A stretch of DNA of 6,567 bases from a virus (Duplodnaviria; Heunggongvirae; Uroviricota; Caudoviricetes). Under the pieces are notes generated by a model. The model had not been told where the DNA came from. It saw nothing but the letters and a program-made list of their open reading frames with translations, and ran no database searches. Position 1 is the first letter of the stretch, and the number at the start of each line of letters is the position of its first letter. The stretch lies in IMG/VR virus record IMGVR_UViG_2671180444_000011, one strand, 5' to 3'. The translations under genes were made by a program, and so were the position numbers. Positions 1 to 3,790 of this stretch are shown here, in pieces.

Positions 1-77
1 TTCATTGGAGCACCTGTGTTGTTCTGAGGTGAGCATATCACCTCTGTTCAGGTGGCCAAATTCAGTGTGCCACTTCA
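1..77 (-). mobile_element. IS911 (IS3 family) left terminus, cut by window edge; element continues beyond position 1
   Basis: Reverse complement of 1-77 reads TGAAGTGGCACACTGAATTTGGCCACCTGAACAGAGGTG...CTCCAATGAA, matching my recollection of the IS911 left inverted repeat and leader; the orfA ATG lies at 5..3 on the minus strand. Outer terminus TG at 77/76. Confidence 0.6.
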
Positions 78-1031
78 AACGTAGGTGCCCACCTTTTCAA
101 ATGATCTGCGCCCCAAATCTTGGACATCCTATGAAAAATGTTTAAGTCGATATTGAACCGGACTCATGCCATCGAGTTTCTCTTTAATGCGATGGTGATT
201 GTAGTATTCAATGTAATCAATTATATCTTGCTTTAGATGATGTAACTTATTGTATTTATTTAGGTAGTAACATTCTTATTTTAAAGTACTAAAAAAGCTT
301 TCCATTGCTGCATTATCTAAGCAGTTACCACGTCGGGACATGCTTTGTGTTATGCCATTATCACTCAACCAACGTTGCCAACGAGGCATCTGATATTGCC
401 ACCCCTGATCACTATGCAACAAGGGCTTATCGTCTTTATTGAGTTGTTCTACCGCATCTAATAGCATGCTCTTTACCATTGATGCTAATGGGCGCTCAGT
501 AAGGTTATATGAGACTATTTCTCCATTATACAGGTCCATGATTGGTGATAAATAGAGCTTCCTGCCATCGACCTTAAACTCTGTGACATCTGTTACCCAC
601 TTTTGATTTGGGCGGTCAGCATAAAATTGTCTCTTCAGTAAATTATTACAAGTTCGCCCCTGTTCTCCACGATAGGTACGGTACTTCTTGCGCCTGATAA
701 GTGAGCTGATACCCAGTTCCTTCATTAACTTTCTGATGGTTTTACCATTAAGTAAAATGCTCTCGTTACGGCAGGCAAGTCTGATGCGTCGATAACCATA
801 ACGCCCTTTATGCTGATGGTATATTCTCAATATTACTTGTTTAACAAGTTGATATGGATCTGGCGCATTAAGGCGTTTCACGTGATAGTAAAATGTACTA
901 CGTGGCAAATCCGCGATAACCAGTAATTGTGATAATGGATGACATTGCCTTAACTCATTAATAATGATTACTTTTTCTTTTGTTCCAATCGTAATTTTTC
1001 CTGAGCTAAGGCTTTCAGCTTTTTTAGATAA
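78..1031 (-). mobile_element. IS3-family element fragment (IS150-group-like); upstream part (orfA, left end) missing, replaced by the IS629-like element at 1031/1032
   Basis: Contains an OrfB-type DDE transposase reading frame on the minus strand and a putative A6G slippery site at 1016-1022; the sequence ends abruptly at the intact terminus of the neighbouring IS. Confidence 0.6.
129..1031 (-). pseudogene. IS3-family OrfB transposase (DDE integrase core) with in-frame premature TAA at 276-278
   Basis: Translation shows WVTDVTEF, LHSDQGWQY and SMSRRGNCLDNAAMESFFSTLK motifs. After the TAA the same frame continues ECYYLNKYNKLHHLKQDIIDYIEYYNHHRIKEKLDGMSPVQYRLKHFS to a stop at 129-131, so the disruption is a single nonsense codon, not a frameshift. 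Confidence 0.7.
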
Positions 1032-1085
1032 TGAACCGCCCCGGGAATCCTGGAGACTAAACTCCCTGAGAAAGAGGTAAACAGG

Positions 1086-1411
1086 ATGACTAAAAATACT
1101 CGTTTTCCCCCGAAGTCCGTCAACGGGCAGTCCGTATGGTTCTGGAAAGTCAGGGCGAATATGACTCACAATGGGCGGTAATTTGTTCCATTACTCCAAA
1201 GATTGGCTGTACACCGGAGACTCTGCGTGTCTGGGTTCGCCAGCATGAGCGGGATACCAGGGGCGGTGATGGAGGGCTCACCACCGCTGAACGTCAGCGT
1301 CTGAAAGAGCTGGAGCGTGAGAATCGTGAACTGCGCTGCAGTAACGATATCCTTCGCCAGGCTTCCGCTTATTTTGCGAAGGCGGAGTTCGACCGCCTCT
1401 GGAAAAAATAA
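1086..1411 (+). pseudogene. IS629-like orfA (helix-turn-helix / leucine-zipper transposase subunit), frameshifted near its 5' end
   Basis: ATG at 1086 gives MTKNTRF, then the conserved frame ([25 protein letters not shown]...[19 protein letters not shown], stop 1409-1411) is in a different frame. The frameshift maps to the T4 run at 1103-1106; no alternative start codon exists in the conserved frame between 1094 and 1135. Confidence 0.65.
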
Positions 1412-2116
1412 TGCCACTGCTGGATAAGCTGCGTGGGCAGTACGGGGTCGGACCGGTATGCAGTGAACTGCATATTGCCCCGTCAACGTATTACCACTGT
1501 CAGCAACAGGACATCATCCTGATAAACGCAGTGCCCGTGCGCAGCACGATGACTGGCTGAAGAGAGAGATACAGCGCGTATACGATGAAAATCATCAGGT
1601 GTACGGTGTGCGTAAAGTCTGGCGCCAGTTGTTACGGGAAGGAATCAGGGTGGCCAGATGTACAGTGGCGCGCCTCATGGCGGTTATGGGACTTGTCGGT
1701 GTTCTCCGGGGTAAAAAGGTCCGCACTACCGTCAGCCGGAAAACCGTTGCCGCAGGTGACCGCGTAAACCGTCAGTTCGTGGCAGAACGTCCTGACCAGC
1801 TGTGGGTGGCTGATTTTACTTACGTCAGCACATGGCAGGGCTTCGTCTATGTGGCGTTCATCATTGATGTGTTTGCCGGATACATCGTGTGGTGACGAGT
1901 CTCATCGTCTATGGAAACGACATTCGTGCTGGATGCACTGGAGCAGGCGTTGTGGGCCCGTCGTCCGTCTGGCACCATCCATTACAGCGATAAAGGCTCT
2001 CAGTATGTGTCACTGGCCTATAAGGCGCGACTAAAAGAAGCAAAACTGCTGGCATCAACAGGGAGTACAGGCGACTCGTATGACAACGCGATGGCAGAGA
2101 TCATCAAGGGCCTTTA
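1411..2116 (+). pseudogene. IS629-like orfB (DDE transposase), frameshifted, with in-frame TGA and 3' truncation
   Basis: MPLLDKLRGQYGVGPVCSELHIAPSTYYHCQQQ, then a frame change near 1505-1515, then ...YGVRKVWRQLLREGIRVARC...DQLWVADFTYVS...FIIDVF, an in-frame TGA at 1893-1895, then ...HYSDKGSQYVSLAY...GDSYDNAMAE. The frame is cut at 2116 by the IS1 terminus. Confidence 0.7.
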
Positions 2117-2131
2117 GGTAATGACTTCAAC

Positions 2132-2635
2132 TTATTGATAGTGTTTTATGTTCAGATAATGCCCGATGACTTTGTCATGCAGCTCCACCGATTTTGAGAA
2201 CGACAGCGACTTCCGTCCCAGCCGTGCCAGGTGCTGCCTCAGATTCAGGTTATGCCGCTCAATTCGCTGCGTATATCGCTTGCTGATTACGTGCAGCTTT
2301 CCCTTCAGGCGGGATTCATACAGCGGCCAGCCATCCGTCATCCATATCACCACGTCAAAGGGTGACAGCAGGCTCATAAGACGCCCCAGCGTCGCCATAG
2401 TGCGTTCACCGAATACGTGCGCAACAACCGTCTTCCGGAGACTGTCATACGCGTAAAACAGCCAGCGCTGGCGCGATTTAGCCCCGACATAGCCCCACTG
2501 TTCGTCCATTTCCGCGCAGACGATGACGTCACTGCCCGGCTGTATGCGCGAGGTTACCGACTGCGGCCTGAGTTTTTTAAGTGACGTAAAATCGTGTTGA
2601 GGCCAACGCCCATAATGCGTGCAGTTGCCCGGCAT
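2132..2635 (-). CDS. insB: IS1 InsB reading frame (C-terminal part of the InsAB' transposase); not expressible as a fusion because insA is interrupted
   Basis: 167-aa ORF ...[54 protein letters not shown]...[39 protein letters not shown]..., recognisable as IS1 InsB. Confidence 0.8.
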
Positions 2636-2653
2636 CCAACGCCATTCATGGCC

Positions 2654-2657
2654 ATAT
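2654..2657. repeat. Target-site duplication (ATAT) of the IS21-family insertion, right copy
   Basis: IS1 sequence ...CCATTCATGGCCATAT is followed directly by the IS21-family terminus; uninterrupted IS1 has a single ATAT at this point (…CATTGATATGGCCATG…). Confidence 0.7.
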
Positions 2658-2716
2658 TGTCAACGCCACGATGTTTGACCGTTATTTGCCATTTTCATGC
2701 CCGCTAAATACTTTCG

Positions 2717-3053
2717 TTACTGATGCTGTCCGCTTTCCACCATTTCATCATCACTGATTGGCGTTGTGTTTTTGGTCAGCACTCCAGCTTTACGTTTCTC
2801 TTTTAACCGGTAACTCTCTCCTTTGATATTCAGCGTGGTTGAGTGATGTAGCAGCCGATCCAGGATCGCTGTTGCCAGTACGTGATCTCCGAACATTTCT
2901 CCCCAGTCTGCGAACCCTTTGTTTGACGTCAGTATGATGCTCGCTTTTTCATATCGACGGTTCAGTAGCCGGAAGAACAGACTGGCTTCCTCTCTGTTCA
3001 TCGGCAGATAGCCTATTTCATCCAGGATCAACACCCGGGCATAACTCAGTTGC
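2717..3053 (-). CDS. istB: IstB helper ATPase (IS21 family), C-terminal part; N-terminal part lies in the N-run
   Basis: ...[84 protein letters not shown]..., i.e. the Walker B (hhhhDE) and C-terminal region typical of IstB / DnaC-like AAA+ proteins. Confidence 0.75.
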
Positions 3054-3276
3054 NNNNNNNNNNNNNNNNNNNNNNNNNNNNNNNNNNNNNNNNNNNNNNN
3101 NNNNNNNNNNNNNNNNNNNNNNNNNNNNNNNNNNNNNNNNNNNNNNNNNNNNNNNNNNNNNNNNNNNNNNNNNNNNNNNNNNNNNNNNNNNNNNNNNNNN
3201 NNNNNNNNNNNNNNNNNNNNNNNNNNNNNNNNNNNNNNNNNNNNNNNNNNNNNNNNNNNNNNNNNNNNNNNNNNNN
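3054..3276. other. Run of 223 N (assembly gap or masked sequence) inside the IS21-family element
   Basis: Direct observation. Visible IstA and IstB fragments imply roughly 1.2-1.5 kb of real sequence is missing, so the gap is not to scale. Confidence 0.95.
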
Positions 3277-3413
3277 CTGGCTGGCGGTTCAGGGTATTTG
3301 AGGTAGCGTCTGACCGTCCGTTCAGAGCAACCAATCTGAGTCGCAATATCGACGATGTACGCGCCCTGCTGGTGCATTTGCTTTATCATGTAAAAGTCCT
3401 CTCTGCTCAGCAT
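3277..3413 (-). CDS. istA: IstA transposase (IS21 family), N-terminal 45 residues; remainder lies in the N-run
   Basis: MLSREDFYMIKQMHQQGAYIVDIATQIGCSERTVRRYLKYPEPPA, a helix-turn-helix N-terminus characteristic of IstA; ATG at 3413 on the minus strand. Confidence 0.65.
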
Positions 3414-3514
3414 GTTGATGTCCTTTCTGGTGTGAGAACCTTAAGGAAACAACATGTTGGGTGGAGCGGACAATCCAAATGGCGAATTACCGTCTTATAT
3501 CACTGGCGCTGACA

Positions 3515-3518
3515 ATAT
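3515..3518. repeat. Target-site duplication (ATAT) of the IS21-family insertion, left copy
   Basis: The IS21-family terminus ...GCGCTGACA is followed directly by ATATCAATGATTTTCTG (IS1). Confidence 0.7.
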
Positions 3519-3690
3519 CAATGATTTTCTGGTGCGTACCGGGTTGAGAAGCGGTGTAAGTGAACTGCAGTTGCCATGTTTTACGGCAGTGAGAGCAGAG
3601 ATAGCGCTGATGTCCGGCAGTGCTTTTGCCGTTACGCACCACCCCGTCAGTAGCTGAACAGGAGGGACAGCTGATAGAAACAGAAGCCAC
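3515..3690 (-). pseudogene. insA: IS1 insA, truncated after about 58 codons by the IS21-family insertion
   Basis: [58 protein letters not shown] matches the InsA N-terminus (zinc-finger region); the frame then runs into IS21-family terminal sequence. Confidence 0.8.
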
Positions 3691-3790
3691 TGGAGCACCT
3701 CAAAAACACCATCATACACTAAATCAGTAAGTTGGCAGCATCACCAAAATTGGTTATGCTGTTAAGAGTGGTTACTTCGTCACACAGCTT

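Follow-up and report, generated by a model that had tools for sequence, protein, structure and literature searches.

A split IS1 linking the SHI-2 island end to a DLP12-like prophage in a Shigella sonnei-type scaffold is probably a repeat-mediated assembly chimera

Organization of the analyzed DNA

The DNA analyzed here is a stretch of 6,567 nt (IMG/VR record IMGVR_UViG_2671180444_000011), referred to in its entirety as the window. Insertion sequences (IS) occupy its left part and late genes of a lambdoid prophage its right part. The two are connected through a copy of IS1 which is interrupted by IS21, and the IS21 in turn contains a run of 223 Ns. This IS1 lacks a target duplication, and its origin, which we consider to be probably an error of sequence assembly, is the main subject of this work.

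The window was read directly and aligned to annotated reference copies of each element. Closed or large S. sonnei-type contigs (loci L017-L026, L027, L028, L043, L044, L046 and L049) were used for comparison; L046 is strain 53G (HE616528.1) and L023 is CP061367.1. Relatives of the left part were found via a 68-aa open reading frame (ORF) ending at the IS629/IS1 junction, which led to ten large chromosomal contigs. The following features were located:

1-77, minus strand: terminal 77 bp of IS911 (left inverted repeat, IRL, end), running off the left end of the window; 100% identical to positions 1173-1249 of the IS911 in L017
78-80: AAC, right copy of the 3-bp target duplication of IS911 (L017 compared with the empty site in L018)
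78-101: terminal remnant of an IS66-family element, the inner 24 bp of a 74-bp stretch split by IS911 (from the sequence of relatives)
102-1031, minus strand: an IS150-group element of the IS3 family, here called ISx, with an intact right terminus at 102 and about 480 bp gone from the orfA end; 99.4% identity
1032-2116, plus strand: IS629 from IRL to position 1087 of 1310, frameshifted and cut by IS1; 93.7% identical to the intact copy in L002
2117-2657, minus strand: insB-side 541 bp of IS1, carrying the single-nucleotide polymorphisms (SNPs) of the SHI-2-end copy; 99.4% identical to IS1A positions 1-541
2658-3053, minus strand: istB-end 396 bp of IS21, up to the gap; 98.5% identical to the annotated IS21 in L003, NCBIfam IstB
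3054-3276: assembly gap of 223 Ns inside IS21, standing for about 1,496 bp of that element
3277-3514, minus strand: istA-end 238 bp of IS21; 98.7% identical to positions 1894-2131 of the IS21 in L003
3515-3745, minus strand: insA-side 231 bp of IS1; 99.6% identical to IS1A positions 538-768
3746-3753: AAAATTGG, right copy of the 8-bp target duplication of the nmpC/essD IS1 (from closed genomes)
3746-6481, plus strand: late region of a DLP12-like lambdoid prophage; 92% identical to K-12 DLP12 and 98-99% to E. coli prophages
3936-4151, plus strand: essD (E. coli prophage annotation)
4151-4648, plus strand: rrrD (E. coli prophage annotation)
4633-5103, plus strand: Rz (annotated as lysis protein in E. 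coli prophages)
5305-5802, plus strand: KilA-N (E. coli prophage annotation)
5799-6056, plus strand: 85-aa ORF in the prophage late region
6482-6567, plus strand: IS2, first 86 bp, cut off by the right edge of the window; 98.8% identical to K-12 IS2A positions 1-86

A preliminary description of the same DNA, made from the letters alone, had reported a pile-up of five IS. Its identifications (IS911, IS150-like, IS629-like, IS1 and IS21-family) and most of its coordinates were borne out by alignment to reference copies, and the IS segments lie where it had placed them. It did not include a sixth named element, the IS2 beginning at 6482, and it had overlooked the 223-N run in IS21. The start of IS2 seen at the right edge is also present in L027, L028, L038 and L039.

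Origin of the two flanks of IS1

Positions 1-2657 of the window are 100% identical to L017 and L020. In the ten large contigs iucC-iucD-iutA are followed by IS911 (seven contigs out of ten), ISx, the truncated IS629 and IS1; genes for IucA_IucC, Lys_Orn_oxgnase and a TonB-receptor were found 4-10 kb upstream, and nlpA downstream, in L017-L026. As judged by sequence identity, positions 1-2657 form the right end of the SHI-2 aerobactin island. This iuc/iut island is described, in the summary of Moss et al. 1999 and Vokes et al. 1999 given by PMC7545054, as rich in partial transposases and in remnants of IS that go back to a stepwise assembly. The segment downstream of iucC-iucD-iutA is thus the same in the window and at the known island end. 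What follows it differs: at the known end the terminal IS1 is intact and adjoins a truncated nlpA, whereas in the window IS1 is seemingly split by IS21 and then gives way to prophage DNA. All ten large contigs have an intact 768-bp IS1 in this place; its right neighbour is the nlpA-yicS side in nine contigs, whereas in L023 it is the gene for adenine deaminase.

The SHI-2 copy of IS1 is itself bounded in closed genomes by different sequences, GGGCCTTTA and CGGGTGATT, and therefore shows no duplication (IS629'/IS1/nlpA'). Its right flank corresponds to K-12 sequence within the 3' end of nlpA; relative to K-12, setC and yicL have been lost together with the final 56 nt of nlpA. In view of the absent duplication and of the loss of setC and yicL this IS1 probably marks an old IS1-associated deletion, which has been inherited as a fixed feature. 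Next to it, L023 (10207-10974) lacks a segment of 4.1 kb, nlpA-yicS-nepI-yicN-adeQ', which in the other contigs is bounded by two direct IS1 copies (L017 10975-15071); this looks like the result of IS1-IS1 recombination.

On the other side, positions 3515-6567 are 99.97-100% identical to S. sonnei 2015C-3566 (CP022457.1, strain name from PMC6456863), to L027 and to the IMG/VR prophage contigs L038 and L039, and also to L043 and L046 as far as these loci extend. An intact 768-bp IS1 lies between nmpC and essD in L027, L043, L044, L046 (53G) and L049, in the arrangement ...GTAAAAAATTGG/IS1/AAAATTGGTTATG; the edge of IS1 that follows ...GTAAAAAATTGG at the nmpC junction reads GGTAATGAC. The corresponding empty site, ...GTAAAAAATTGGTTATG, was found in L016, L003 and K-12. 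Throughout the closed genomes examined the same 8 bp, AAAATTGG, stand without mismatch on both sides of this IS1, which is therefore a simple insertion with a target duplication.

The order of the lysis genes is that of the K-12 DLP12 cassette (essD-rrrD-rzpD), and the nucleotide identity is 92% with K-12, reaching 99% with other E. coli. IS elements near nmpC are common in relatives, for example IS5 in nmpC of K-12 and IS1 in E. coli TA8571. The S. sonnei copy is distinguished from its DLP12 relatives by IS1 at ...AAAATTGG with the 8-bp duplication, by IS2 downstream, and by a copy of IS1 split by IS21 (IS1::IS21) at the left boundary, next to lacY. The IS1 of TA8571 (L015 4329-5100) is an independent insertion in the nmpC-essD intergenic region, 311 bp upstream of the S. 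sonnei site.

The preliminary description had concluded that the two flanks of IS1 come from different original contexts, and the comparison agrees: the left flank belongs to the SHI-2 island end and the right flank to a DLP12-like prophage.

IS1 and IS21 at the join

The two IS1 segments, 2117-2657 and 3515-3745, together make up a complete 768-bp element, 99.5% identical to IS1A (positions 1-541 and 538-768, overlapping by 4 bp). The ends of IS21 at 2658 and 3514 correspond to IS21 positions 1 and 2131, and ATAT is present on both sides, at 2654-2657 and 3515-3518. IS21 is a clean simple insertion into IS1 with a 4-bp duplication. No duplication of 8-9 bp surrounds IS1 itself in the window; the adjoining 9-mers are GGGCCTTTA on the left and AAAATTGGT on the right, a difference that had already been recorded correctly.

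The IS21 of L003 is 2131 bp long, and the pieces on either side of the Ns match its positions 1-397 and 1894-2131. About 1,496 bp of the element are therefore unrepresented, and the length of the 223-N run does not fit a full-length IS21. A 111-aa partial IstB ending at the gap is indexed in 337 assembly blocks, and in all five places listed the gene starts at the first base of a contig. Contigs L032 and L036, when aligned to the window, begin at 3052, 1 bp from window position 3053; measured from the istB end of IS21, this is 395 bp into the element. Assembly graphs seem to fork recurrently near 3053/3054. L051, a typical short-read contig, ends 110 bp into IS1, just before the polymorphic site 2227, and the edges of the window, 77 bp inside IS911 and 86 bp inside IS2, are also of the kind at which short-read contigs end.

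The possibility was considered that the Ns mask real sequence of equal length, in which case the window would be contiguous and would contain an internally deleted IS21 of about 857 bp within a recombinant IS1. The run is not a standard 100-N gap, a short-insert scaffolder would estimate about 223 bp only if the ends were truly that close, and the description of genome_contigs states that some stretches are masked as Ns. A length-preserving mask is nevertheless very unlikely, because the left edge of the run lies within 1 bp of the starts of other short-read contigs. In addition, the full 2,902-bp IS1::IS21 occupies an identical insertion site in all closed genomes examined, and the same multi-step recombination would still be needed as for a join made in the cell (see below).

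In closed genomes IS21 within IS1 was found at a third locus. This was located via two ORFs spanning the IS21/IS1 junction, one of which is indexed in 385 assembly blocks. The locus contains a 2,902-bp composite in the order lacY/IS1 (541 bp)-IS21-IS1 (231 bp)/ybcN side of the prophage and lies 4.7 kb leftward of the IS1 between nmpC and essD; next to IS1 the ybcN side reads GAAGTGGTAAAG. Among the 385 indexed blocks the lacY-side arrangement was present in all eight large-contig places listed, 53G included, with sixteen more grouped as similar. The flanks of the composite in L043 and L046 (3391-6292) differ, being CTGCAAGCG on the lacY side and GAAGTGGTA on the prophage side. Since they differ, the composite represents a genuine fixed rearrangement that joined the lac region to the left part of the prophage. 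Transposition of IS1::IS21 into the window as a unit was rejected, as there is no duplication around the composite in the window and the flanks at the lacY site differ too. Apparent IS1+IS21 neighbours in E. coli (H1, H7 and H41) proved on inspection to be unrelated separate elements.

Two drafts contain irregular structures at this composite. In L029 (CWUL01000003.1) 60 bp of IS21 are fused at 5080-5084 to IS1 position 483, with a 5-bp overlap, and the mutS region follows. In L040 (IMGVR_UViG_2675903595_000013) a 32-bp IS1 fragment at 3258-3290 runs directly into internal IS21, with a single N alongside.

The IS1 of the window carries T at 2127 and C at 2227. Its insB-side part is 100% identical to the SHI-2 IS1 of L017 and differs at both positions from the IS1::IS21 copy of L027 and L028; hence the left part of IS1 derives from the SHI-2 copy at least as far as 2227. 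A switch beyond 2227 would be compatible with either an in-vivo or an in-silico origin. Closed genomes assign the three pieces to three different IS1 copies, and the IS1 of the window is therefore a hybrid: the SHI-2 copy supplies its left flank, the lacY IS1::IS21 its interior and the prophage copy its right flank.

Is the join real?

In both closed records in which distances were determined, the SHI-2 end and the prophage have the same orientation and are 1.32 Mb apart (0.53 and 1.85 Mb in JBEAAA010000004.1; 1.21 and 2.53 Mb in JBDZZZ010000011.1). With loci so disposed, the join seen in the window would delete the intervening 1.3-Mb arc, which should contain oriC if K-12 coordinates (nlpA at 3.84 Mb, essD at 0.58 Mb) apply. 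Such a deletion would amount to 27% of the chromosome including, by K-12 synteny, the replication origin, and for this reason a real origin of the join would need a prior inversion.

Searches for the junctions were also made. When 5,426 complete E. coli genomes were probed with 200-bp sequences covering the two IS1 junctions, two-piece matches only, and no single-piece match, were obtained. A 36-mer spanning IS1/essD had no exact match in genome_contigs, and in viral_contigs it matched four prophage fragments only, none with the SHI-2 half. The patterns for the IS629'/IS1 junction and for the left IS1/IS21 junction had no match in viral_contigs. The arrangement of the window was seen in none of the closed or large contigs read.

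These data could be explained if the join was made in the source strain by homologous recombination between IS1 copies, which would have brought together the SHI-2 end and the lysis genes of the prophage by way of the IS21-split IS1. One crossover, located in the 231-bp insA part of the directly repeated copies IS1 (nmpC/essD) and IS1::IS21, would eliminate the ybcN-nmpC segment of 4.7 kb, and a second crossover in the 541-bp insB part would exchange lacY for IS629'. The retention of SHI-2 SNPs up to 2227 is compatible with a crossover between 2228 and 2657, and frequent IS-driven rearrangement of Shigella genomes is reported (PMC8072062). At least two independent crossovers would be required, however. 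With direct loci 1.32 Mb apart the second would remove more than a quarter of the chromosome with oriC, and thus a prior inversion would be needed in addition to the crossovers in the insB and insA parts. The misfit of the 223-N gap to a full-length IS21 and the absence of the arrangement from the closed and large contigs also argue against this explanation, which we regard as unlikely.

IS1 insertions and IS1-IS1 recombination of the kind known in Shigella are represented in this material by 768-bp copies more than 99.4% identical, by the 8-bp duplication at the prophage site and by the deletion between direct copies in L023. The hybrid IS1 of the window is unlike these, as it combines the flanks of direct copies 1.3 Mb apart and would not be viable as the product of a single recombination. 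It has more in common with repeat-induced chimeras of scaffolding or gap-filling: the join lies wholly within multi-copy repeats, contains Ns and a gap length that does not fit, and is contradicted by closed genomes of the same lineage. The neighbouring drafts L029 and L040 likewise have anomalous joins at the composite. The proportion of repeats in such genomes is high. IS expansion in Shigella is described in PMC7373316, which counts 331 IS copies in S. sonnei 53G, IS1 accounting for 165, and about nine ancestral sites of IS21 insertion in S. sonnei.

Since the SHI-2 end meets the prophage only through repeats and Ns, contrary to the arrangement in closed genomes, the IS1 without duplication is most likely a repeat-mediated scaffold chimera that arose in assembly, scaffolding or gap-filling. 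We infer from the observed element boundaries, target duplications and arrangement of closed relatives that the join was made in silico. The window would then be a short draft scaffold of an S. sonnei-type genome, in which two short-read contigs were joined across an unsequenced gap within nested repeats (IS21 in IS1). The left contig would be the inherited right end of SHI-2, with an IS66-family stub split by IS911, an IS150-group element, IS629 cutting that element and IS1 cutting IS629. The right contig would be the lysis region of the DLP12-like prophage behind a simply inserted IS1 with an 8-bp duplication. Identical repeat sequence of three IS1 loci would have been threaded together by software, and most probably not by the cell.

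Several observations weigh against a chimera and, in part, in favour of a join made by recombination. Majority-rule or conservative assemblers should proceed from IS1 to IS1 (about 164 copies) and not into IS21 (one copy), or should stop early, as happened in L051 110 bp into IS1. A typical majority-rule chimera would not take the minority path, and the window does. That its contigs run through 541 and 231 bp of IS1 into IS21 hints at local read support. The same essD-IS1 (231 bp)-IS21 adjacency is present in the independent draft L040. As to whether the genome of L040 contains the ybcN-nmpC segment, the Q-gene pattern was too widespread to tell, and the pattern for the IS1/ybcN-side junction matched L038 only. 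Recombination between IS1 copies does take place at the SHI-2 end, as documented by L023, in which nlpA-adeQ between direct IS1 copies is absent. Finally, the source assembly and its reads were not found in pattern searches of genome_contigs and viral_contigs.

The preliminary description had itself allowed that the junctions might be artefacts of assembly, or that direct repeats might be found at the boundaries of IS1. The results go largely in this direction: the link consists of repeat and Ns only, and closed genomes contain three IS1 loci and an 8-bp repeat at essD.

Nested elements of the SHI-2 end

The sequence 1-77 is 100% identical to the end of a full 1,249-bp IS911 in L017 and 95.5% identical to the annotated end of K-12 IS911A. 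In L017 the element is flanked by AAC on both sides (GGTAAC/IS911/AACGTAGG), of which the window holds the right junction only. A single AAC is present in the IS911-free site of L018, ...GGTAACGTAGG, and IS911 is absent also from L022 and L023. It is a clean, polymorphic simple insertion with a 3-bp duplication.

The 24 bp at 78-101 match neither neighbouring IS. They belong to a 74-bp stretch, GTAAGCGTAAACCGAC...TTTTCAA (its end is also given as CACCTTTTCAA), which in L018 is 96% identical to DNA beside an IS66-family tnpA/B/C element in L011 and is found in E. coli L001 and L009 as well. In the plasmid locus L011 an ISx copy has inserted into that element and the stretch is found beyond this copy; because of this position we read it as an IS66-family terminal stub. 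The intact terminus of ISx at 102 reads TGATCTGCGCCCC (also given as TGATCTGCGCCCCAAATCTTGGACA). ISx is 99.4% identical to intact copies of about 1.41 kb in L010 and L011; its OrfB has 56.7% aa identity to IS150 InsK (NCBIfam transpos_IS3, E = 4.7e-82), and a premature stop is present in orfB.

ISx was found about 74 bp inside an IS66-family terminus at the same spot (±1 bp), in unrelated contexts and in both orientations (window 78-105; L011 3888-3987; L010 2495-2540). The stub is faced by the right end of ISx in the window and by its left end in L011, where there is an apparent TCAAC duplication. This suggests that ISx may target IS66-family ends site-specifically.

The IS629 copy is 93.7% identical to the intact 1310-bp copy in L002 and 97.8% identical to a copy in E. 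coli BR1220 annotated as IS629 family. It is decayed over 1086-1900: a T is missing near 1103, which shifts the orfA frame, and orfB is split into several ORFs. Its decay and its divergence fit an old immobile relic and speak against recent activity of a hotspot. In BR1220 (L001) the same ISx/IS629 junction adjoins the sat autotransporter gene; being common to this strain, the junction is older than that of the SHI-2 IS1. In the region L001 5749-8011, the BR1220 copy of IS629 contains a group II intron (ltrA) at the equivalent of window position ~1820. In E. coli H106 (L002 665-3998) ltrA lies between two partial IS3-family transposase fragments, adjoining IS629-like copies.

Only two true truncations are present, at 1031/1032 (terminus of IS629 against internal ISx) and at 2116/2117 (terminus of IS1 against internal IS629), and the comparison with relatives indicates that both are old and inherited. 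These two had been named correctly in the preliminary description as intact termini abutting internal sequence. The third junction named there, 77/78, is of another kind: IS911 adjoins the 24-bp IS66-family remnant, the terminus of ISx is intact at 102, and the 3-bp AAC duplication together with the empty site in relatives identifies a simple insertion and not a rearrangement.

It had further been suggested that IS1 inserted into an IS hotspot of a decaying prophage and then caused an adjacent deletion, leaving no duplication. IS1 can make adjacent deletions, the flanks of IS1 in the window differ, and the SHI-2 copy, which also lacks a duplication, is probably the trace of such an old event. 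The proposal fits the inherited IS629'/IS1/nlpA' junction. It does not fit the IS1-essD join of the window, as a deletion from essD to SHI-2 would remove 1.3 Mb. In closed genomes, moreover, the 8-bp repeat around the IS1 beside essD is undamaged. To the left of IS1 lies the end of the SHI-2 island instead of prophage DNA, and the IS911 and IS21 junctions are simple insertions. For the window, adjacent deletion appears to be contradicted by the arrangement of closed genomes and is the least probable of the explanations considered. Nor is a prophage hotspot supported, because the left 2.1 kb belong to the SHI-2 end, outside the prophage and 1.3 Mb away from it in closed chromosomes.

Significance

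The pile-up of IS elements is genuine, and it is already known and ordinary: it consists of the end of the SHI-2 island and of IS elements inserted into a cryptic prophage. Shigella genomes regularly contain nests of IS at the ends of islands and IS1 copies within cryptic prophages, and the arrangement carries little biological weight. An IS without target duplication cannot be read as a rearrangement in the draft of a genome with about 165 copies of IS1, least of all where the connection runs through repeats and a gap of Ns. If true, a real join would represent a multi-step IS1 rearrangement comprising a 4.7-kb prophage deletion and a large chromosomal inversion or translocation. Even then, it would be one more strain-specific IS1 recombination of a well-documented kind.

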